In this document: positions 12,352 through 22,842 of the stretch, one piece after another | Numbering within the stretch: position 1 is the first letter of the stretch | How the letters are laid out: each line of letters opens with the position of its first letter | Source of the DNA: an uncultured Bacteroidota bacterium | GTDB taxonomy: Bacteria > Bacteroidota > Ignavibacteria > UBA10030 > UBA6906 | Assembly: GCA_963700635.1 (NCBI GenBank) | Contig: CAVOYH010000005.1 | Location: 32,001-96,000 of the forward strand | Direction: 5' to 3' | DNA: 64,000 nt | Notes under the pieces: model-generated | Seen by the model: the letters and a program-made list of their open reading frames with translations, nothing else | Told to the model about the DNA's origin: nothing | Database searches by the model: none | Position numbers and translations under genes: made by a program

Positions 12352-13008
12352 TTATTGCCTTGTCATGGCAGTTCCACACTTCGGGCATGTGCGCTCAACG
12401 CAGGGCACGCCGCGTTCGTGTGGTGCCGTCTGTCCGCATTTTGGACAAAGGCAGGTGCCGGCAACGCCAGCCGCAGAAGGACCTCCCTTACGACCTCGAC
12501 CTTGTCCGCCCTGGCCCTGACCCTTTCCGCCCCCTTTTCCCATTCCACCTCGACCTTGTCCGCCCTGGCCCTGACCCTGTCCGCCACCTTTTTCCATTCC
12601 AACACGTCCTTTTTCGTTCATCTCGTATTCCTCCTCCTTAGTTGTGTCGCATATTCTCCTATGACGACCGCGACCGCAACAGCCCGGCATAGCAAATGTA
12701 TCGTGTTCAAACGTACCACTGAGCCAAGCCTGAACGACCAATTGCAGATCGCCGGCCACGAAGGGGACGACCTGGATTCCGTAGGCGGTGACCATCCCGC
12801 TCATCGGCCTGGAGATCGCACCGCAAACCAGTGTGTTGATTCCAAGCTCCACCAGTCGAAGTGTCTTTTGAACGGACTGATCTTCCGGGAGCGTTTCCTG
12901 GCTCTCGCGGATAATACGTCCTGAGGCGGCCTCGACGACGTGAACCTGTCGCGCGGTGTCGAAAACTGGCGCGATGCGATCGTCCCAGTATGCGAATGCT
13001 GTTTTCAT
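12352..13008 (-). CDS. NifB/NifX-family (orange-protein-like) domain fused to Gly-rich linker and CxCxxC...CxxxxCxxC domain
   Basis: RIAPVFD and LVCGAIS motifs; C-terminal CLCPKCG...[11 protein letters not shown]. Confidence 0.85.
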
Positions 13009-13194: not shown

Positions 13195-14586
13195 CTACTG
13201 TGTTCGCTTGCGAGTGGCGCGGCCGTCTCGTTCGGGAAGGGAAATATTCAGCTTTTTCATCCTGCGGAAAAGCGTGGTTTTGTGGATGCCAAGCTCCCGA
13301 GCTGCCGCCAGCCGGTTGAAGGCGTTTCGTTCGAGTGCGGCGTGGATGGCTTGAGCATCGAGGACATTGTGGGCGGACCGCATATCGGCATCCGCGCCCG
13401 CCATTACGCCGCGAGCTGTCAATTCTCCGGGTAGGTGCGCGAATTCTATTTCCCCGTCGCCACAGAGAATGAACGCACGCTCGATGACGTTTTCCAGCTC
13501 GCGGATGTTACCCGGCCAGTCGTGGGCCATGAGGAGGGATAAGGCCTCCGCAGCAATCCCCTTTACGAATTTCCTCTGCGACCGGTTGAACCGGGTGACG
13601 AACTGCTCAACCAGGAGGGGAATGTCTTCTTTTCGTCGGCGCAGCGGGGGCAATTCGACGCGCACCACGTTCACGCGGTAGTAGAGGTCATCCCGAAAAT
13701 GCCCCTGGCGCATTTGGTCAGCCAGGTCTTTGTTTGTTGCCACAATGACACGAACGTCAGCTGCTTCGGATCGGGTGGCTCCCAGCGGCTCATACATACG
13801 TTCCTGCAGCACACGGAGCAATCTGACCTGAAGGGCCTGGCTGATCTCGCCGATTTCGTCGAGTAAGATCGTCCCCCCCTTGGCCAATGCAAAGCGGCCA
13901 GGTTTATCCTTGTTTGCTCCGGTGAACGCCCCGGCCTTGTATCCGAACAATTCCGATTCCAGCAATGTGTCGGGCAAAGCCCCGCAGTTGACTGCGATGA
14001 ACGGCCCCTGGTTTCGCGGGCTGAGCGAATGGATTGTCCGCGCCACCAGTTCCTTCCCGGTGCCGGTTTCTCCGAGGACAAGAACCGTGCTGGGGCTGGC
14101 GGCGATGGCAGGCAGAACTTCGAACACTCGCTGCATCAAGGGGCTTCTGCTGGTCAGGTCGCCGACCCGGAATTTCCCCTCCAACTCCTGTCGTAACGCC
14201 TCGACTTCGGAAAGATCGCGGAATGTCTCTGCGCCGCCGATCACGCGCCCATCGCCGTCCCGCAGCATTGCCGTAGAAATGCTGATGGGGATGCGGTTCC
14301 CGTCCGAATCAACGATGTACCCGGATTTACCGATGATGGGTTTGCCGGTCTTCAGGGTTTCCTGAAGCGAACAGGCGGCCTCGCACATGCTGGAACGAAA
14401 CACATCCGAGCAGCGTTGGCCGATCGCCTCATTACGAGACACACCCGTGATCTCTTCGGCGGCCCGGTTGAACGACGTGACGCGCCACTCCATATCCACA
14501 GTAAAAACGCCGTCTGAGATGCTCTCAAGGATGGTTTCGGTCGGAGTCAGGGCTGCTGGTTTCGTGCTTTTCTTACGGCTGTTCAT
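13195..14586 (-). CDS. PAS-domain sigma54-dependent activator (OrpR-like)
   Basis: PAS with Cx8Cx3C; Walker A GETGTGKE; GAFTGA; WPGNIRELEN; Fis-type HTH. Confidence 0.93.
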   Translation of the reverse strand: MNSRKKSTKPAALTPTETILESISDGVFTVDMEWRVTSFNRAAEEITGVSRNEAIGQRCSDVFRSSMCEAACSLQETLKTGKPIIGKSGYIVDSDGNRIPISISTAMLRDGDGRVIGGAETFRDLSEVEALRQELEGKFRVGDLTSRSPLMQRVFEVLPAIAASPSTVLVLGETGTGKELVARTIHSLSPRNQGPFIAVNCGALPDTLLESELFGYKAGAFTGANKDKPGRFALAKGGTILLDEIGEISQALQVRLLRVLQERMYEPLGATRSEAADVRVIVATNKDLADQMRQGHFRDDLYYRVNVVRVELPPLRRRKEDIPLLVEQFVTRFNRSQRKFVKGIAAEALSLLMAHDWPGNIRELENVIERAFILCGDGEIEFAHLPGELTARGVMAGADADMRSAHNVLDAQAIHAALERNAFNRLAAARELGIHKTTLFRRMKKLNISLPERDGRATRKRTQ

Positions 14587-15054
14587 CCCGATGTGCAGAC
14601 CCTCCCTGCATAGAATCCCCGTAACTCCTCTACCCTGCTAATGATCCGTGTGCTCATGTGCTATATCAGTTGCCCATTCGTTGATTCACCATGCACCGCC
14701 CCTTAAAGAAAACCGTTTCATGCCTCAATCTCAAGGCCATACTCATCTATATTTGAGATTAACTCCCACATTAAAACATGCGAAATTGGATCCAAGTTCC
14801 ACAAAGACGCGATCTGACCTCCGACACTCCTTCAAGATTTTGTAGATAAAAATGTTATCTTGGCCGTAGGGAGTCTCTGGAAAAACGGACTCAATCTTGG
14901 CATTTGCCCTGCGGACGGTTCACGCGGCGGACATAGCAGCCCAAGCCACGTGAAGCGGTTCCTTGATTGCAGGCACCATCTTTTAGTTGTATTCACCGCA
15001 GTTTTTCCCCGCGTTCATCGTCTAATGATACAGAAGCTCACTGAATTGGAGTTC

Positions 15055-15684
15055 ATGCAAGACCGGGAATTCATCGACCGATTGGTGGCAGGAGATCAGG
15101 AGGCTTTTCGCCTCCTCGTGGAACTCCATCAGGCAAAGGTCATCAATACCTGCTACGGCTTCCTCGGCACCAAAGAGGATGCCGAAGACACTGCGCAGGA
15201 GGTCTTTCTCGAGATCTTCCGGTCCATTGAAGGATTCCGGGGTGATGCGTCACTTTCCACCTGGATCTATCGTATCGCGGTCACCCGGTCGCTTGATAGT
15301 GTCCGGGCTCGAAGTCGGGCAAAGAGAACGGATCATCTTAGACAACTGCTGGGATTGGGTGAAACAATGAACGAACCGAAGGCACCGGAAGAGCTGGCCC
15401 CGGACATTCAGCTCGAGGAGAAGGAGCGCATGGAACTGCTTCTCCGTACGATAGCGAAACTGCCGGAGAACCAGCGCGTGGCAATCACACTCGCGAGACT
15501 GGAAGGGTTCAGTTACACCGAGGTTGCCGGGATCCTGGAGACAACCGTCGGTGCCGTGGAGTCCCTTTTGGTCCGCGCCAGGAAGAATCTTGAGAAGGCT
15601 CTGTCAAAGTACTTTCAGCGTCGATTGGCCGATCCGCGCGAAGGGGGATCGTCGTACGCTGAACAACGGAGGAGCGCATTATGA
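15055..15684 (+). CDS. ECF sigma-70 factor
   Basis: DAEDTAQEVF, STWIYRI, region 4 with GFSYTEVA; ATG after GGAG at 15055 (alternative start 15025). Confidence 0.93.
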   Translation: MQDREFIDRLVAGDQEAFRLLVELHQAKVINTCYGFLGTKEDAEDTAQEVFLEIFRSIEGFRGDASLSTWIYRIAVTRSLDSVRARSRAKRTDHLRQLLGLGETMNEPKAPEELAPDIQLEEKERMELLLRTIAKLPENQRVAITLARLEGFSYTEVAGILETTVGAVESLLVRARKNLEKALSKYFQRRLADPREGGSSYAEQRRSAL

Positions 15685-16025
15685 CCAAACGCGAACGCAT
15701 TCAGGACGAAGTGCAGAAGACGATCAGTTTTCTGGACAAGATGCCGCGACTCGACGGGAATCCATTTCTGTATACGCGCATCGCGCTGCAGTTGAACGCT
15801 GGAGCCGGACGGTCATCGGCACGCGCCGGTCATCGTCTCGCCGCTGTGTTCAGTACCGTGCTGCTGGCGCTTCTGATCATTTTCAACATCATGACACTGG
15901 CGCACTCCCTGACGGGTGCGGCCGGCGACACAGTGTCACGATCGGATCTCAAGGAAACCATAGTGCAAGAGTACCAGATCGGTGTGGATCCGCGGGCGCA
16001 ACTTATCATGACTGAGACCAGGTGA
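15681..16025 (+). CDS. Single-TM putative anti-sigma factor
   Basis: ATGA overlap with the sigma gene, NPFLYTRI motif, one TM helix. Confidence 0.7.
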   Translation: MTKRERIQDEVQKTISFLDKMPRLDGNPFLYTRIALQLNAGAGRSSARAGHRLAAVFSTVLLALLIIFNIMTLAHSLTGAAGDTVSRSDLKETIVQEYQIGVDPRAQLIMTETR

Positions 16026-16032
16026 GGCACGT

Positions 16033-16584
16033 ATGGACATCTTTGCGCAAAAGAAACTTCTTTATGTGATCATCGTCCTGCTGGTTGTCCTGAACGTGGC
16101 CTCCCTCGGCATGCTCTGGTATCAGCACGCACAACGGGATGTCGTTCCTGCCGCTCTTACGCGCGGTGGAAGGGGAGCTATGGGGCGGCTGGTCGAGCGT
16201 GAGCTTGATCTTTCGGGGGAACAGCGCGAGAAGTTTGACCTACTGGGCGCGGAACATGCCTTGACCCTGACGCAGACCCAGGATGCGCTCATCCAGGCCA
16301 AACGGGCGATACTCAAGGAGGTCACTGCGCCGGCCCCGGATACTGCCCGCGTAAGACTCCTCGTGCACGAGATCACGGCGAATCAGGACCGGCTCGAGTG
16401 GCTCCTGTTCGATCACTTTGTCCAGATCCGCTCGCTCCTGAGAGAAGACCAGAAACAGAAGTTCGACAATCTCATCATTGAAGTGACTGAAGCCCCTCCC
16501 CCGCAGCGGCGGGGCGGATTGCGGCGGGGATTGCCGGAGGGGCCGCCTCCGTCAGGCAGGCCTGAACCAGAACCCAGAAATTAG
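16033..16584 (+). CDS. Spy/CpxP/ZraP-like periplasmic protein
   Basis: N-terminal TM; LDLSGEQ and LLREDQKQKF (LTxxQ-like motifs). Confidence 0.8.
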   Translation: MDIFAQKKLLYVIIVLLVVLNVASLGMLWYQHAQRDVVPAALTRGGRGAMGRLVERELDLSGEQREKFDLLGAEHALTLTQTQDALIQAKRAILKEVTAPAPDTARVRLLVHEITANQDRLEWLLFDHFVQIRSLLREDQKQKFDNLIIEVTEAPPPQRRGGLRRGLPEGPPPSGRPEPEPRN

Positions 16585-16605: not shown

Positions 16606-16860
16606 GTGAATCAACTGACGATAACACCCGACCTCGCGATCAGCGAAACGGGCTTCCTGTTCCTTTCGTCCACCGGCGAGACCTTTACGGTGAACGAACT
16701 GGGAAAACAGATACTGAGATCCCTCCAGGATGGGGTGAGCCAGGAGGCGATCATCCAGGCCATCACCGAAGAATTCGACGTTGAGCCGGTGGATGCGCAA
16801 CGGGACGTCGTGGACTTCGTTGGACTCCTGAAGCACCTGCGCCTGGCGGTTGAATCATGA
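16606..16860 (+). CDS. Stand-alone PqqD-family protein / RiPP recognition element (RRE)
   Basis: 84 aa: GETFTVNELGKQIL...EEFDVEPVDAQRDVVDFVGLL, the typical PqqD pattern; RBS GAGGA then GTG. Confidence 0.88.
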   Translation: MNQLTITPDLAISETGFLFLSSTGETFTVNELGKQILRSLQDGVSQEAIIQAITEEFDVEPVDAQRDVVDFVGLLKHLRLAVES

Positions 16861-17897
16861 ACATCGCCATCACGGGGTTGAATAATATCGATAATCCAGG
16901 GCCGGGAGTGCCTGTAATCCGCGCGCTTCGGGATTCGGGAGAAGTTGACGGGCGCATCATCGGACTGCTTTATGACACGCTTGAGCCGGGCGCCTACCTC
17001 CCTTCGGTCGCAGATGCGAGCTACATGATTCCGTATCCCTCCGCGGGCCTGGAGCACCTGTACGGGCGGCTCGCCGTGATTCTGGAGCGGGAGAAGATCG
17101 ACGTCATCATTCCCACGCTCGATTCCGAGTTAAACGGATTCATCGCACTCGCGCCCCGCCTCAAGACGCTTGGAGTGCGCATGCTGCTGCCCTCAAAGGA
17201 GCAGTTGGCCATGCGGGCGAAGGATAAGCTCGCCGATTTTTGCCGCAAACACGGGATCGCTGTTCCTGAGAACATCCTGGCAACCTCCGTACAGGATGTG
17301 TACACGATCCAGACACACTATGACTATCCGGTCGCTGTGAAAGGCATCTTTTACGATGCTGTGATCGCGAACAATTTCGAAGAAGCGCTCTCTGCATTCC
17401 ACCGGTTGCAGGAGAAATGGGGGCTCCCCATTGTTGTGCAGGAGTTCGTCCACGGCGACGAGTATAATGTGTGCGCTCTCGGTGACAACGGTGCGACCGT
17501 TGGCGCCGTTGCTATGAAGAAGATGTACATCACGGACAAGGGGAAGGGGTGGTCGGGCATCACCATCCGGGAGCCGGCGTTGATCGGGCTGACCGAAAAG
17601 ACGATCGGGGCCCTGCAGTGGAACGGTGGGATCGAACTCGAATTCGTGAAGGATCAGGCAACCAATGCCTATGTCCTTCTGGAGATCAACCCCCGCTTTC
17701 CGGCCTGGGTGTACCTGGCCGTTGCTGCCGGACAGAACCTTCCTCTGGCCGCCGCAAAGCTTGCCCTCGGCCAGCCCGTTCCGAAGTTCAGTTCGTACGA
17801 TATCGGGAAGATGTTCATCCGGTATTCGTGGGACCTTATCACTGATATCAAGCGATTTGAAGAAATCACCGTCAGCGGGGAATTACACAATGACTAA
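16857..17897 (+). CDS. ATP-grasp protein (CarB-like single-domain family)
   Basis: DK...YPVAVKG...VVQEFV.G.EY...LLEINPRF. Confidence 0.9.
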   Translation: MNIAITGLNNIDNPGPGVPVIRALRDSGEVDGRIIGLLYDTLEPGAYLPSVADASYMIPYPSAGLEHLYGRLAVILEREKIDVIIPTLDSELNGFIALAPRLKTLGVRMLLPSKEQLAMRAKDKLADFCRKHGIAVPENILATSVQDVYTIQTHYDYPVAVKGIFYDAVIANNFEEALSAFHRLQEKWGLPIVVQEFVHGDEYNVCALGDNGATVGAVAMKKMYITDKGKGWSGITIREPALIGLTEKTIGALQWNGGIELEFVKDQATNAYVLLEINPRFPAWVYLAVAAGQNLPLAAAKLALGQPVPKFSSYDIGKMFIRYSWDLITDIKRFEEITVSGELHND

Positions 17898-19251
17898 AAG
17901 ACCGTATGAGCGGCCCGTCATCACGAAGCAACAGTCCGGATTTATGAACAAGTTCGGCAGTGCGCCGGCGAGCACGCCGAGAACTGAGATCGATGGTGTT
18001 CCGATCAAGCAGTTGACTGAGGATTTTGGCTCGCCACTGTTCGTCCTTTCGGAGCGCACGATCCGTGAGACCCAGCGCTCGGCCTTGCGCGTATTCCGTA
18101 CCCGCTATCCGCGTGTACAGTTCGCATGGTCCTACAAAACGAACTACCTCAACGCGGTGTGCTCGGTCTTTCATCAGGAAGGATCATGGGCGGAGGTGGT
18201 GTCGGAATTTGAATACGACCGGGCCCGGGCTCTGGGGATTCCCGGCGAACACATCCTCTTCAACGGCCCCGACAAAAGTTCTGATGCGATCGAGAAGGCG
18301 ATCCGCGATCGCGCGAAGATCCATATCGATCATATGGATGAGCTTTATGAGATCATTGAGGTCACTGAACGTCTTGGTCTGAATGCGGATGTGGCCATTC
18401 GTGTGAATATGGACGTCGGGGTCTATCCGAAATGGGACCGGTTCGGGTTCAACTACGAGAACGGGGAAGCGCAGGATGCGCTGAAGCGCATCGTGATGAC
18501 ATCGCGGCTGAAACTCGTCGGCCTGCATTGCCACATTGGCACCTACATGATGAGCGCTGAACCCTATCGCATCGCCATGGGGAAACTTGTGACCCTCGCC
18601 AACTGGTTGAAGAGCCAGCATGGCATCGCCGTCCAGTACCTCGATGCGGGAGGCGGTCTGCCATCCCGGAATACCCTGAAAGGTCAGTATCTGCCGGCCG
18701 AGGACTCGCTGCCGTCGCTGGAACAGTACGCAGACGCGATCACCGCCCCTTTCCTGGAACTTGCTGCGCGGCGGGACGAAATGCCCATGCTGATTCTCGA
18801 ATCCGGTCGGGCTCTGATCGACAGTGCCGGCTTTCTCGCGAGCACCGTCCGCGCGGCGAAGCGCCTCTCCGATGGAAAACGCGCGCTCGTGCTCGATGCG
18901 GGGGTCAATATTCTCTTTACGAGCTTCTGGTACAAGCATACCATTCTCCCCGCCCAGCCGGCCGGGATCATGAAAGAAAACGCGGCGGTCTTCGGTCCGC
19001 TCTGCATGAACATCGATTGTATCCGAGAGGACATCACTGTGCCCGGTCTCAAAAAGGGTGATCAGGTGGTGATCCTCAACGTCGGGGCGTACAATATGAC
19101 GCAATGGATGCAATTTATCACGCTGCGTCCGGCCGTTGTGATGATCATGGAGAACGGGAAGGCAGAACTCATCAGGAAACCGGAAGACCTGGCCTATGTG
19201 ATGAGTCCCGAGTCTGTCCCGTCCTCACTCACGATTTCGACGCCGGTCTAG
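17890..19251 (+). CDS. PLP-dependent fold-type III decarboxylase (LysA/BtrK-like) with N-terminal extension
   Basis: SYKTN (PLP lysine), HCHIGT, DAGGG, ESGR, GPLC, VGAY; ATG at 17890 overlaps the upstream stop region. Confidence 0.9.
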   Translation: MTKRPYERPVITKQQSGFMNKFGSAPASTPRTEIDGVPIKQLTEDFGSPLFVLSERTIRETQRSALRVFRTRYPRVQFAWSYKTNYLNAVCSVFHQEGSWAEVVSEFEYDRARALGIPGEHILFNGPDKSSDAIEKAIRDRAKIHIDHMDELYEIIEVTERLGLNADVAIRVNMDVGVYPKWDRFGFNYENGEAQDALKRIVMTSRLKLVGLHCHIGTYMMSAEPYRIAMGKLVTLANWLKSQHGIAVQYLDAGGGLPSRNTLKGQYLPAEDSLPSLEQYADAITAPFLELAARRDEMPMLILESGRALIDSAGFLASTVRAAKRLSDGKRALVLDAGVNILFTSFWYKHTILPAQPAGIMKENAAVFGPLCMNIDCIREDITVPGLKKGDQVVILNVGAYNMTQWMQFITLRPAVVMIMENGKAELIRKPEDLAYVMSPESVPSSLTISTPV

Positions 19252-19262
19252 GGGAACCCAGC

Positions 19263-21401
19263 ATGCACTTGTTTTTTGATGCGCTGCTTTACAGCTATGC
19301 GCAGATATTTTTCAGCAACAGGAAGTGGTTCGGCGTGCTGGCGCTCGCCGCGACCGCGACCATGCCGTTGATCGGCGTGGGGGGGCTGGTCGGGGCGCTC
19401 GTCGTCAACGGCCTTGCCCTGGGCCTGCGATTTGACAAGGAGCGGATCCGCAGCGGCTTCTACGGCTTCAACGGTATCCTGTTCGGGGCCGCCGCGATGT
19501 ACTACCACCAGCCTACGCTGACGTATCTCGTGATGTCGTTGCTGTTCGTCGTCATCGCCTTCTTCGCCACAGCAGCGCTCGAACACTACTTCGCCACAGC
19601 GTTTAATCTGCCCGGCCTGAGTCTGCCGTTTGTTCTGACCTTGTATGTGTTCGTGGTGTTCCTCGGAAACTTCGATTGGGTCGTTCTCCATGCGACCGGG
19701 TCGCAAGCGACGCTGGTGGCGTTCCTGCCGCGGTCTGTGCTCTTCTATTTTCAGTCGCTGGGGTATGTGCTGTTCCAACCCGATGCGCTGGCGGGCGTGT
19801 TCCTTGCGGTCGGACTGGTTCTCTTCTCGCGTGTCTTTTTGGTCGGTAGCGTTCTTGCCTACGGCACGAACTGGGTTCTCGCTGCGTATCTCTTCCCGGA
19901 TGCCACGGATGCGTTCATCCTGCAGTCCTCGGTGAACGCCATTCTGGTCGCTCTGGCTCTGGGCGGGACCCTGATCATCCTCTCTCGGAAGACCGTGCCT
20001 CTGCTGGTTTTCGCGGGGGTGATATCGCTGGTGTTCACCGGGTTCTTCACGCGTTTCCTGTCGGTCTCGGATCTTCCGGTGCTGGTCCTGCCGTTCAATC
20101 TTGTGACCCTCGCCACCATCTATTCCCTCAAGTTCCGGCAGGAGCAGAGTGACCTGGTCCTGCTCTATTTTGCTCCCGGATCGCCAGAGGAGAACTACTA
20201 TTACCATCAGAACAGAAAATCCCGGTTCGAGCGGTTTCGTTATCTCTTCCCTGAGTTGCCCTTCTTCGGAGAATGGAGTGTGTCTCAGGGAATCGCCGGC
20301 GATATCACTCATAAGGGTGCGTGGAGCGATGCCTGGGATTTCGTGATCCTTGATGATGAAGGGAAAGAACATTCCGGTCAGGGAACCGTGGTCCAGGAGT
20401 ACTTCTGCTACAACACCCCGGTGGTTGCGTCTCTGGATGGTGATGTGGTCCGTGTGGTCGACGCGATTCCGGACAATGAGATCGGCGAAGTTAATGTTGA
20501 GAACAACTGGGGCAATACCATCATCCTGGACCATGGTCAGGGCCTGTTTTCAGCGCTCTCGCATCTGAAACCCGGTTCGGCCCAGGTTGGGAAGGGAGAT
20601 CACGTCCACAAAGGGCAGATCCTGGCACGCTGCGGGAACAGCGGCCGCTCCCCGGTCCCCCATCTGCATTTTCAGTTCCAGGGTACCGATCGTCTGGGGG
20701 AGAAGACGCTTTCGTTCCCTCTGGCTCAGTACCTGGAAAAAACCAACGGGTCCGTCGAGCTCCGCACGTTTGAGTATCCCCAGCAGGGGAGACGCGTCCA
20801 TAACATTGAGCTTCACGGGGATGTGCGCCGCGCATTCTCGTTCCCTGTCGGCGCGGACTATACGTTTGACTGTACGCTGAACGGACGGGCTTTCGAGGAA
20901 CGGTGGGAGGTCAAGATCGACAGTCTGAACACCGTCTACATCGACTCCACCGGTGGGGCCACCGCCTATCTTTATCCCCGGGACAAGGTGTTCTCCATGG
21001 CGAACCTCGTGGGAAACCCGCGCTCGGCCCTTTCGTTCTTTTTCCTGAACTCCATCAGCGTGCCTCTGGGATACAACACACATATGCAGTGGAGCGATCA
21101 GTTGCCCGTCCGCCTCATGATCGGCGGTGGTCTGCGTTTTTTCTCGGAGTTCCTGCTCATCTTCGGCGACCAGTTTGTGGCCAGGGCGGTACTCCATTTT
21201 GATGAACAGGCCGGTCAGGGTAACGGGTTCTCCATCCATGCGCTCTTCACCGTGTCCGGTCGCGGCATCTTTTCCCGGTATCGCCGGCAGGCTGAGGGAC
21301 GCATCACGGTCGACGGCGAAGGCGAGATCGCTTCGTTTGAATACACGGACCCAACAACGACATTCAACGCTCACCGAATACACAAAGGATCCAACATATG
21401 A
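19263..21401 (+). CDS. Urea-transporter-family membrane domain fused to M23 peptidase domain and C-terminal unknown domain
   Basis: About 10 TM helices with GFYGFNG and LPxxxLPF repeats; then HKGAWSDAWD, WGNTIILDH, GNSGRSPVPHLHF (M23). Confidence 0.88.
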   Translation: MHLFFDALLYSYAQIFFSNRKWFGVLALAATATMPLIGVGGLVGALVVNGLALGLRFDKERIRSGFYGFNGILFGAAAMYYHQPTLTYLVMSLLFVVIAFFATAALEHYFATAFNLPGLSLPFVLTLYVFVVFLGNFDWVVLHATGSQATLVAFLPRSVLFYFQSLGYVLFQPDALAGVFLAVGLVLFSRVFLVGSVLAYGTNWVLAAYLFPDATDAFILQSSVNAILVALALGGTLIILSRKTVPLLVFAGVISLVFTGFFTRFLSVSDLPVLVLPFNLVTLATIYSLKFRQEQSDLVLLYFAPGSPEENYYYHQNRKSRFERFRYLFPELPFFGEWSVSQGIAGDITHKGAWSDAWDFVILDDEGKEHSGQGTVVQEYFCYNTPVVASLDGDVVRVVDAIPDNEIGEVNVENNWGNTIILDHGQGLFSALSHLKPGSAQVGKGDHVHKGQILARCGNSGRSPVPHLHFQFQGTDRLGEKTLSFPLAQYLEKTNGSVELRTFEYPQQGRRVHNIELHGDVRRAFSFPVGADYTFDCTLNGRAFEERWEVKIDSLNTVYIDSTGGATAYLYPRDKVFSMANLVGNPRSALSFFFLNSISVPLGYNTHMQWSDQLPVRLMIGGGLRFFSEFLLIFGDQFVARAVLHFDEQAGQGNGFSIHALFTVSGRGIFSRYRRQAEGRITVDGEGEIASFEYTDPTTTFNAHRIHKGSNI

Positions 21402-22027
21402 CGATACGAACTATGTGGCTGATCACGCTGACGCTGGTTCTTGCTGTTGCCGCGACGGAGGGTGCCGTGCGGGCGGAGGATAAGGCCCGTGCGTTCACGA
21501 TCTCCATCAAGGAAGAGACCAACGGCAACTGGAAACGTGCGATTCAAGTCATGCTCGACCTTTCCAGTGGAATCGGCACAGACTACCTCACCACGCTCCG
21601 CCTGGGATGGCTCCACTACAACGCACGGGAGTTCGAGAAGTCCGCACAGTACTACAGAGAAGCAATGCGCATCAGCGACAACAGCATCGAGGCCCTTCTT
21701 GGCGTCACCCTTCCGTATGCGGCCCAGGGAAAATGGGACGCCGTCCAGGAAGCGTACAAGTCGATTCTCGCCAAAGACAAACTCAACTACATAGCGAACC
21801 TTCGTCTGGGACAGATCTACATGAACCAGGGGAACTACCTGATGGCGAGGCGATATCTCGATCTGCTGGCTGAAAACTACCCCGGCGACTACGAGACCAA
21901 TCTCTACGTGGGATGGACCTATTTCGGTCTCGGCAGCAAGACGAAGGCCCGGGAGGCATTTATCAATGCGATGAGCGTGTATCCAGCTGATACGAGTGCT
22001 GTCAAAGGGTACGGGTTGACCAAATGA
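21398..22027 (+). CDS. Secreted TPR-repeat protein
   Basis: Signal peptide; repeats such as LRLGWLHY and LRLGQIY. Confidence 0.85.
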   Translation: MTIRTMWLITLTLVLAVAATEGAVRAEDKARAFTISIKEETNGNWKRAIQVMLDLSSGIGTDYLTTLRLGWLHYNAREFEKSAQYYREAMRISDNSIEALLGVTLPYAAQGKWDAVQEAYKSILAKDKLNYIANLRLGQIYMNQGNYLMARRYLDLLAENYPGDYETNLYVGWTYFGLGSKTKAREAFINAMSVYPADTSAVKGYGLTK

Positions 22028-22842
22028 AGACTCTCGTTCTGCTTGGTGCGTTGATCCTCAGCGTGTGTCCGGGTTTCTCACAGCCATCGACGACAACATT
22101 CCTGCCTGCCGGATACTACACGGCAGGATCATATTCGAACGGGAACAGTTCGAACTCGTATGCCGGCTATGCTACCGTGGCCTTTGGCGGTCTTGACTAT
22201 GTCGTGGCAGGTTATGACGCAATGACGATCCAGTCAACACCTTGGACCTACGATCAGCAATTCTTCGTGGTCGGAGCCCTGAAGAACCTCTACCCTTTCT
22301 ATGTGAAGTTGAATGTTGGACGAATCGAAGGGACATTCAAGCTTGCGGGGCAGCGGTATTCCTATGCCGATCAGACAGACATTCTGAACGGCGGCTTCCT
22401 CTATAATGTGGACGTTTTCTATGTCGGGGCGACGTACACCTATATGAGCGTCAGCGGATACACAAATGTGCGCTCCCACCAGATCGGACTTCAGGGAGAC
22501 TGGTTGTTGGACCCGGCCTTCAACCTCTCAATACGTCCGCTGTATTCGCGGGTGACGGATGGCCGGTCATTGATTTCTGTTGGAGGGGAGGTGTCGTATG
22601 CCCCTTGGAAGACGCTTGTATTGCGGGTGTCAGGGATGGCGGGGAAGCGGGCATACTATTTTAATCCCGATTTCCTGACCGTGTTCAACCAGAACGAAAC
22701 ACAAAAGAGTCTGTGGGGCATCCGCATGGAATACACGATTGTCTCCGGCCTGACCGTGATTGGGAGCTATCAATCGGCGGGCTTTTCCGGGTACACGGTG
22801 CGTTATGCCGCGATCGGAGCGCGGGCCCGCATCCCGTTGTGA
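22024..22842 (+). CDS. Putative outer-membrane beta-barrel protein
   Basis: Signal peptide; Tyr/Gly-rich amphipathic beta-strand pattern; C-terminal alternating strand. Confidence 0.7.
   Translation: MKTLVLLGALILSVCPGFSQPSTTTFLPAGYYTAGSYSNGNSSNSYAGYATVAFGGLDYVVAGYDAMTIQSTPWTYDQQFFVVGALKNLYPFYVKLNVGRIEGTFKLAGQRYSYADQTDILNGGFLYNVDVFYVGATYTYMSVSGYTNVRSHQIGLQGDWLLDPAFNLSIRPLYSRVTDGRSLISVGGEVSYAPWKTLVLRVSGMAGKRAYYFNPDFLTVFNQNETQKSLWGIRMEYTIVSGLTVIGSYQSAGFSGYTVRYAAIGARARIPL

Follow-up and report, generated by a model that had tools for sequence, protein, structure and literature searches.

Here, we describe a gene cluster in a 64,000 nt stretch of DNA, referred to throughout as the window, from an uncultured Bacteroidota bacterium (GenBank assembly GCA_963700635.1, contig CAVOYH010000005.1, positions 32,001 to 96,000 of the forward strand) with a source genome of 4.2 Mb that is 97 % complete. 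The + strand of the window carries a compact operon that encodes a PqqD-type protein, an ATP-grasp ligase, a decarboxylase, a protein that joins a urea-transporter (UT) domain to an M23 peptidase domain (UT-M23), a tetratricopeptide repeat (TPR) protein and a 272 aa protein. Our subject is the N-terminal tail of the decarboxylase, which bears a short motif of the type found in lasso-peptide leaders, and its putative partner, the PqqD-type protein, which resembles the RiPP recognition elements (RREs) that bind such leaders (RiPP, a peptide that is made on the ribosome and modified after translation). The features of the operon are as follows (PLP, pyridoxal 5′-phosphate; pLDDT, predicted local distance difference test).

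16606-16860, + strand: discrete PqqD-type RRE of 84 aa, lasso-B1-like (Pfam PqqD, E 4.4e-12)
16857-17897, + strand: ATP-grasp ligase of 346 aa (Pfam ATPgrasp_Ter and ATP-grasp_3; NCBIfam PRK12767-like, all below cut-off)
17890-19251, + strand: fold-type III PLP decarboxylase of the LysA/FslC group, 453 aa (Pfam Orn_Arg_deC_N and Orn_DAP_Arg_deC)
17890-17985, + strand: N-terminal tail of the decarboxylase, residues 1-32 (sequence, conservation and low pLDDT)
19263-21401, + strand: UT-family membrane domain, M23 metallopeptidase domain and unassigned C-terminal domain (Pfam UT, 3.6e-40; Peptidase_M23, 1.5e-15)
21398-22027, + strand: secreted TPR protein (matches to TPR families)
22024-22842, + strand: 272 aa protein with a signal-peptide-like start, without a family match in Pfam and NCBIfam scans

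The stop codon of the RRE gene and the start codon of the ATP-grasp gene overlap via ATGA, and the ATP-grasp stop (17895-17897) overlaps the decarboxylase ATG at 17890 within ATGACTAA. The TPR gene and the gene for the 272 aa protein (21398-22842) form the syntenic distal part of the operon across loci. At least 596 genomes, counted at species level, from Ignavibacteriota and Bacteroidota carry the operon, among them records of the cultured genera Pedobacter, Mucilaginibacter and Algoriphagus, and divergent versions are found in metagenomes.

The ATG at 17890 opens the 453 aa decarboxylase frame, whose N-terminus reads MTKRPYERPVITKQQSGFMNKFG. An earlier note, made from the sequence of the window alone, had placed a YxxPx(I/L) motif at this N-terminus, on an extension ahead of a LysA-like core, and both parts of that description are borne out. 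YERPVI occupies residues 6-11 (17905-17922), and approximately 30 residues precede the LysA/FslC-type start, the match to TIGR01048 (LysA) beginning at residue 31 and every solved relative aligning only from residue 31-47 on, which marks the extension as special to this group of enzymes. The tail begins with a basic stretch and continues with YERPVI; then come a second block of fixed residues, G17-x-x-N-K-F-G23 (17938-17958), and, at residues 24-32, a linker that varies. The distance from Tyr6 to Gly23 (window 17905-17958) is 17 residues, which we take to be also the spacing between Tyr(-17) and core residue +1 in lasso peptides.

A single motif-bearing N-terminus could be a chance occurrence, since Y..P.[IL] lies in the first 25 residues of 10 of the 3466 naive ATG-started open reading frames (ORFs) of at least 200 aa in the same genome (~0.3 %). 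Of the 120 best database homologues (65-95 % identical), 119 retain the motif, and in the sole exception, P0033 (434 aa), the gene call opens at the Met that corresponds to M19; 38 aligned homologues show no variation at Y6, E7, P9, G17, N20, K21 and G23. For a wider survey, 141 operons with an RRE, a ligase and a decarboxylase, taken from genomes, metagenomes, genome-search loci and the window, were reduced to 122 at <90 % identity, and [Y/F/W]xxPx[I/V/L] is present in all 122 of these non-redundant operons. Position 6 is always aromatic (Y in 105, F in 13, W in 4), and both P9 and an I, V or L at position 11 are found in 122/122. The remaining residues score E7 105/122, G17 109/122, N20 102/122, K21 118/122 and G23 117/122, with Gly, Ala or Ser at position 23 in nearly every locus. 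Amongst the metagenome loci, 77/80 have the motif; of the remaining three, two run off the contig and one (L103) is unreadable. The best 150 representatives of 50 % identity clusters divide into 31 in which the motif lies equally far from the core, with identities as low as ~35-45 %, 85 with the core but no such motif, and 34 that are fragments or lack a recognizable core. Conservation in syntenic homologues, a check named in the earlier note, extends to metagenome decarboxylases of ~40 % identity.

A sceptical view would hold that the 5′ extension is not translated or has been mis-annotated, that the motif within it is fortuitous and that translation truly starts at Met19, as it does in the P0033 gene call; the chance rate of ~0.3 % for the strict motif would allow this for any one gene. 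Codon usage over 166 loci argues otherwise. Pro9 is encoded by CCG in 78 loci, CCC in 35, CCA in 33 and CCT in 20, all four Gly codons occur at G17 and at G23, and both Tyr codons occur. Because the fixed residues use all synonymous codons, the tail is selected as protein and hence translated, which puts the real start upstream of the motif. The overlap with the upstream gene amounts to just 8 bases and cannot cause the conservation. The free synonymous change in 166 loci and the motif in 122/122 operons refute a start at Met19, to which we attach a negligible probability.

In the AlphaFold2 monomer model of the decarboxylase (mean pLDDT 82), residues 1-4 and 6-26 fall below 50. A segment that is conserved, yet disordered on its own, is expected to bind something.

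A candidate partner is encoded two genes upstream, where the earlier note had located an RRE and where a PqqD-type protein is indeed found at 16606-16860. The 84 aa protein scores 46.6 bits against Pfam PF05402 (PqqD; cut-off 23.4). Its best NCBIfam match is lasso_PqqD_Strm (NF033530), with 46 bits against a cut-off of 70, and NF033536 reaches 26.9 bits against a cut-off of 80. A family profile built from 70 sequences (A2) matches the lasso RREs TbiB1 (5v1u, 4.5e-13), TfuB1 (6jx3, 5.5e-9) and PbaB1 (9.2e-5), and PqqD (3g2b) at 0.018. Judged by these matches, the upstream protein is a lasso-like RRE, closer to lasso B1 than to PqqD proper and short of a curated lasso B1.

The ligand side of such RREs has been described. 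Passages of PMC13381572 give the general RRE-binding motif of leaders as [Y/W]xxPx[L/V/I/F/A], and passages of PMC6784204 describe YxxPxL in actinobacterial lasso leaders, with YxxP and the conserved Leu occupying a hydrophobic cleft of the RRE; the statement in the earlier note that YxxPxL is the RRE-binding motif of lasso leaders agrees with both. On the RRE side, the same passages of PMC13381572 report that N33 of LppB fixes the Pro kink of the leader, that N33A nearly abolishes binding and D70A weakens it, and that PbaB1, a binder of Trp-type leaders, has G42 and Q79 at the Asn and Asp sites. Columns 28 and 65 of the family profile align to the Gly and Gln of PbaB1 with one constant offset of 18, and correspond to N30 (16693-16695) and D67 (16804-16806) of the window protein. 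Mapped in this way via PbaB1, N30 and D67 correspond to the leader-fixing Asn (beta3) and the Tyr-binding Asp (alpha3) of solved RRE-leader complexes. Asn is kept at N30 in 119/122 loci and Asp at D67 in 108/122; at column 65, Asp is found in TbiB1 and TfuB1 as well.

The RRE gene and the tail travel together. The RRE gene was present in 70/70 genome loci with upstream DNA (the remaining 10 are cut by contig ends) and in 63/63 metagenome loci with upstream DNA (the remaining 17 are likewise cut), which amounts to 133/133 loci with enough upstream DNA. Distant and tail-less relatives, used as seeds for a scan of metagenomes, retrieved no loci other than tail-bearing ones, and when 401 genomes of the phylum were searched with P0151, a tail-less representative, the matches were all either the decarboxylase of this system (~32 matches, E<1e-80) or ordinary LysA.

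Covariation points to the same partner. We compared 23 tail columns with 836 columns of the RRE, the ATP-grasp protein and the decarboxylase core across the 122 loci, using normalized mutual information with average-product correction. The top pair of the whole 23 x 836 comparison is tail position 6 with RRE column 65 (D67), at a score of 0.49; the next-best partners of position 6 are an ATP-grasp column at 0.216 and a core column at 0.176. The pairs are Y-D in 104 loci, W-D in 4, Y-N in 1, and F with Y, S, G or H in 13/13, a pattern of Tyr with Asp and Phe with non-Asp that would be expected if the Tyr hydroxyl bonds to the Asp carboxylate. Covariation between the tail and the ATP-grasp protein (top pairs 0.41 to 0.23) was dismissed, as K21 is part of every one of these pairs and the signal comes from one to four outlier sequences. 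No outstanding covariation was seen between the tail and the decarboxylase core, where the best score, 0.233, derives from single sequences.

Lastly, a complex of the RRE (alignment A2) with tail residues 1-36 (alignment A1) was predicted, much as the earlier note had suggested. The ipSAE interface score was 0.59 (runs 0.61, 0.59 and 0.58), compared with 0.02 for the best of three controls. The mark against which the score is read was reached by 58/80 solved complexes and 2/110 mismatched pairs. The runs share at least 91 % of their contacts, with a partner pLDDT of at least 58. The prediction weakly supports binding between the RRE and the tail. The proposal that the RRE binds this segment of the decarboxylase is thereby strengthened on several sides: by the lasso-B1 type of the RRE, the kept polar residues and the Tyr/Asp covariation, all read from sequence, and, weakly, by the modelled complex. 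None of the outcomes that the earlier note named as refuting it was observed.

RREs are commonly taken as markers of RiPP clusters, and genome mining uses them to seek precursor peptides. As the earlier note had remarked, no separate precursor is visible here, and this holds after ORF clustering and a tail-profile search of the genome. When ORFs of 20-130 aa from 81 loci were clustered, only the RRE gene and shadows of large genes were conserved; we therefore rejected a hidden precursor gene near the operon, the RRE gene being the only non-shadow family of conserved small ORFs. A tail profile run against the six-frame translated genome retrieved the decarboxylase N-terminus only (E 6.7e-13), the next-best match having an E value of 2.1. 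Stand-alone tail-like peptides were also rejected: residues 1-40, compared with database proteins of 30-248 aa, gave two matches, both of them decarboxylase fragments that run into the core. The genome has a single PqqD-family gene, with no second RRE in the family search, and this 97 % complete assembly contains no match to Transglut_core3 (lasso B2). The operon has no lasso cyclase-type partner; the cyclase family itself was not searched for.

The enzyme that bears the tail appears to be active. It has both Pfam domains and the catalytic residues of a fold-type III PLP decarboxylase: K83, H213, H215, G254-256, E304, R307, C372, D376 and Y401 are invariant in 38 sequences, and we take these to be the PLP Lys, HxH, GGG, EPGR, CxxxD and Tyr catalytic set of the family. 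The score against TIGR01048 (LysA), 233 bits, lies below the equivalog cut-off of 297.9, and FslC, the second-best NCBIfam model at 221 bits, does not reach its cut-off either. The closest solved structure is FslC (7kh2, 204 bits), and BtrK (7ru7, 2j66) scores ~108 bits. A separate LysA-like gene with a short N-terminus and no motif lies elsewhere in the genome (G000:C3:916041); on this comparison, the decarboxylase of the operon is not the LysA of the genome.

The closest solved relatives of the ATP-grasp protein by profile are carbamoyl-phosphate synthetase, PurD and biotin carboxylases, and no RimK, LysX or graspetide-type structure is found among its 31 profile matches at E<=1e-3. Of the family models, rimK_fam gives E 2.7e-4 and 20 bits (cut-off 143), and LysX gives E 3.6e-3. 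By these profiles, the protein resembles small-molecule ligases and not a known protein-modifying clade, which favours a docking role over modification of the tail.

The M23 domain of UT-M23 keeps the H..D and HxH metal motifs in 102 homologues, and probably faces the cytoplasm, judging by the positive-inside rule and a basic stretch after the last UT helix. The final ~230 residues of UT-M23 match no Pfam family. Natural fusions tie these proteins together: P0274 (435 aa) joins the RRE to the ATP-grasp protein, P0132 (871 aa) joins the ATP-grasp protein to the decarboxylase, with the tail motif kept in the linker and the Lys of the second block lost, and P0148 (781 aa) joins the decarboxylase to the UT domain. 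The three fusions link all four core proteins and so argue for one physical assembly at the membrane. A fusion of the RRE with the decarboxylase was not found among longer proteins in a search of low power, which returned only the RRE and ATP-grasp fusion. The AlphaFold2 model of P0132 was unusable for judging tail order (residues 207-348 and 350-436 have pLDDT <50), and MAFFT misplaced decarboxylase N-termini onto the ATP-grasp part.

Our data are consistent with a model, to which we give an even chance of being correct, where the first ~23 residues of the decarboxylase mimic a leader peptide and the RRE acts as a docking adaptor to the ATP-grasp ligase. The free tail would be unstructured, and its [Y/F/W]xxPx[I/V/L] segment would enter the hydrophobic cleft of the lasso-B1-type RRE, with Tyr6 hydrogen-bonded to Asp67 and the Pro9 kink fixed by Asn30, as in the complexes of lasso and LPP leaders. 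The adaptor role is suggested by the translational coupling of the RRE to the ATP-grasp gene and by its fusion to the ligase in one natural protein; the RRE would hold the decarboxylase beside the ligase, whose amide product could then be handed directly to the decarboxylase in an assembly located at the UT-M23 membrane protein. We prefer docking because the ATP-grasp protein resembles small-molecule ligases and FslC is the nearest match to the decarboxylase. That the two partners bind physically, that the RRE serves as an adaptor, that substrate is handed on and what chemistry the pathway follows are all steps that we infer from the sequence data.

Several observations weigh against this model. 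The Asn and Asp of the cleft are conserved in many RREs generally, according to passages of PMC13381572, and so are not specific to a ligand, and equating them with the LppB positions presumes a tag offset of 18 residues, identical to that of PbaB1. No tail-bearing locus without an RRE was found in the searches described above, which leaves co-occurrence with no negative set for comparison. On a tree of ATP-grasp and core sequences, Phe/non-Phe changes three times and Asp/non-Asp twice, giving three independent pairs, two in the expected direction and one without difference (sign test, p 0.5); the weight of the covariation rests on which column stands out, not on the number of sequences. At scores of up to 0.60, the range of our predicted complex, those that pass the mark comprise only 7 of the 80 solved complexes and both of the passing mismatches, and the prediction may owe its success to memory of solved RRE-leader complexes; it reflects likeness and not binding by this copy. 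The tail could pack on the partner subunit of a decarboxylase dimer, to which a monomer model is blind. The second fixed block, G17..K21-F22-G23, is unexplained by a pure tether, the motif is retained in P0132, where ATP-grasp protein and decarboxylase are already joined, and an M23 peptidase with intact metal motifs, always present, fits such a tether poorly. These last three points keep alive the idea of a tail that is modified, loaded or clipped.

In that alternative, which we consider unlikely, the tail is a true substrate, and the RRE presents G17-G23 to the ATP-grasp protein, to the cytoplasm-facing M23 peptidase, or to both. The tail might be covalently modified, with Lys21 as the best-kept candidate, so as to carry an amino acid, which would leave at the channel after decarboxylation in cis or in trans; or it might be cut near Phe22/Gly23, as a leader would be. 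All of the evidence for binding to the RRE applies equally here. The near-fixed block that follows the motif (K21, G23 and G17, with the counts given above) would find a purpose, in keeping with the proposal, in passages of PMC13381572, that the portion of LPP leaders not touching the RRE serves the modifying enzymes. The constant presence of a peptidase with intact metal motifs in the 102 homologues would be explained, no other peptide having been found, as would the survival of the motif in P0132, where a tether is redundant. Ten variant loci with two ATP-grasp paralogues and Thr/Asp/Lys-rich tails are also compatible with it. BtrI/BtrJ/BtrK, of which BtrK is a solved relative of the decarboxylase at 108 bits, and LysW/LysX are precedents for carrier logic, and the 17 residues from Tyr6 to Gly23 are presumably the same spacing as from Tyr(-17) to the core in lasso peptides. 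Against it, there is no universal acceptor. Both E7 (105/122) and K21 (118/122) were rejected as universal attachment sites, as neither is present in all 122 loci, and P0132 and some of the divergent tails lack the Lys. The kinship of the ATP-grasp protein with carbamoyl-phosphate synthetase, PurD and biotin carboxylase, and not with RimK, LysX or graspetide ligases, also speaks against modification, and an enzyme that consumes its own tail would be limited to a single turnover unless the adduct were removed. Thr is missing from the lasso -2 position of the tail, and none of the core-like positions 7-9 is acidic. In its fullest form, the idea describes a ‘self-leadered’ enzyme, improbable on present evidence, in which the RRE would present the tail, the ATP-grasp protein would load an amino acid, the decarboxylase would process the tethered group, and the M23 peptidase would release the product or clip at Phe22/Gly23 at the mouth of the UT channel. 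If true, a small amine or amide for export would be made by a protein-templated route that combines lasso leader recognition with a carrier logic of the LysW, Btr or pearlin type.

It is also conceivable, albeit doubtful, that the tail is intrinsic to the decarboxylase, as a lid or arm on the partner in the obligate dimer or as a contact for the ATP-grasp protein or UT-M23; its likeness to lasso leaders would then be coincidental, and the RRE would bind another peptide, either unlinked or very short. Strict conservation fits any functional tail, a shared operon explains the co-occurrence of the RRE equally well, and packing in trans is beyond the reach of the monomer model. Very short or divergent precursor genes can slip through ORF clustering, the covariation rests on two to three events and the complex prediction supports the RRE as partner weakly. 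This view requires a triple coincidence of a lasso-type RRE, a lasso-type motif in 122/122 operons and a Tyr that tracks the RRE Asp. Tyr6 tracks that Asp better than it tracks any of the 754 ATP-grasp and core columns, the tail has no outstanding covariation with the core (0.233 at best, from single sequences), the loci contain no other conserved small ORF, and the 4.2 Mb genome contains no other RRE or tail-like sequence. Taking together the docking and substrate readings, both of which require that the RRE binds the tail, we regard such binding as quite probable.

The surroundings of the operon vary. Directly upstream in the window (14860-16584) lie genes for an extracytoplasmic function (ECF) sigma factor, a putative anti-sigma protein and a Metal_resist (Spy/CpxP-like) protein, neighbours that are common only to the closest relative, locus L001. 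Many Bacteroidota loci have a His_kinase/LytTR two-component pair upstream instead, and across loci the upstream neighbours include a protein with a type IX secretion system (T9SS) tail, a LytTR regulator with a kinase, a GNAT protein and an AraC-type protein. Further upstream in the window, a 218 aa ORF with a central Gly/Gln-rich repeat (12352-13008, - strand) adjoins a sigma-54-type activator (13195-14586, - strand). Bacteroidota loci have an extra gene of ~380 aa between the UT-M23 and TPR genes (L047:10482-11624 and equivalent gaps), which has no convincing Pfam match and is absent from the window and from other Ignavibacteriota loci. The ten variant loci, all from metagenomes (L081, L082, L084, L085, L087, L088, L089, L091, L092 and L103), carry, between the genes for the RRE and the decarboxylase, a tandem pair of full-length ATP-grasp paralogues; their tails keep [Y/F]xxPx[I/V/L] (the L103 N-terminus is unreadable) and have a different, Thr/Asp/Lys-rich second block.

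In literature searches directed at the cluster, we found no description of a PqqD/ATP-grasp/decarboxylase/UT-M23 cluster; supplementary lists may hold such clusters. The cluster is not mentioned in the passages of PMC8939145 and PMC10352776 that we consulted, and the words ATP-grasp, decarboxylase and Bacteroidetes are absent from the main text of the RRE-Finder paper (PMC7470986). The mode of recognition suggested by our sequence comparisons is that of lasso and LPP leaders; for an RRE that grips the tail of an enzyme in place of a precursor gene, we found no match in print. If the model is correct, it would explain a whole class of ‘orphan’ RREs without precursors and would indicate that short leader-type motifs can serve as general protein docking tags. 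The tail peptide and the RRE would also provide a handle on an abundant ligase-decarboxylase-channel system.

The nearest comparison is with the solved RRE-leader pairs of lasso and LPP pathways, namely TbiB1-TbiA (5v1v/5v1u), TfuB1/FusB1-FusA (6jx3), PbaB1-PbaA (9x90) and LppB-LppA (9x8z). These share with the window protein the same small stand-alone PqqD fold and the same type of ligand motif, and the Asn of the Pro kink and the Asp of the Tyr hydroxyl are kept here. In those systems the motif lies on a short separate precursor with a C-terminal core, whereas here it lies on the N-terminus of a 453 aa enzyme that looks active. The partner enzyme is an ATP-grasp ligase, and the genome has no match to the B2 protease of the lasso pathway. 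Passages of PMC6784204 give a rule of Thr at position -2 of lasso leaders; the equivalent residue here is Lys21 (118/122).

Amongst decarboxylases, FslC/FigC, the N-citrylornithine decarboxylase of rhizoferrin synthesis (7kh2), and LysA belong to the same fold-type III PLP family. FslC acts on an amino acid that already has an amide link at its distal amine, in keeping with the order of ligase then decarboxylase proposed here. Neither FslC nor LysA has a leader-like tail, their alignments beginning at residue 31-33 of the window enzyme; their pathways lack an RRE, ATP-grasp or UT-M23 partner, and the cut-off of neither model is reached by our enzyme. A small protein, an ATP-grasp ligase and a LysA-family decarboxylase also work as a unit in the butirosin BtrI/BtrJ/BtrK and LysW/LysX systems. 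The small protein here, unlike theirs, has an RRE fold and is neither a phosphopantetheinyl carrier nor a zinc protein of the LysW type, and the ATP-grasp protein is not of the LysX/RimK type.

Lastly, the protein-sized, nitrile-hydratase-like RiPP leaders (NHLP; see PMC12537861) likewise place a large folded protein domain and a short recognition or modified segment on one chain. In NHLP, the leader is the enzyme-like domain, with a core at the C-terminus; in the window enzyme, the motif is found at the N-terminus, on a domain that keeps all of the catalytic residues that we examined. Set beside these systems, and judged from sequence, the operon seems to have re-used a lasso-type RRE for the recognition of an enzyme tail.

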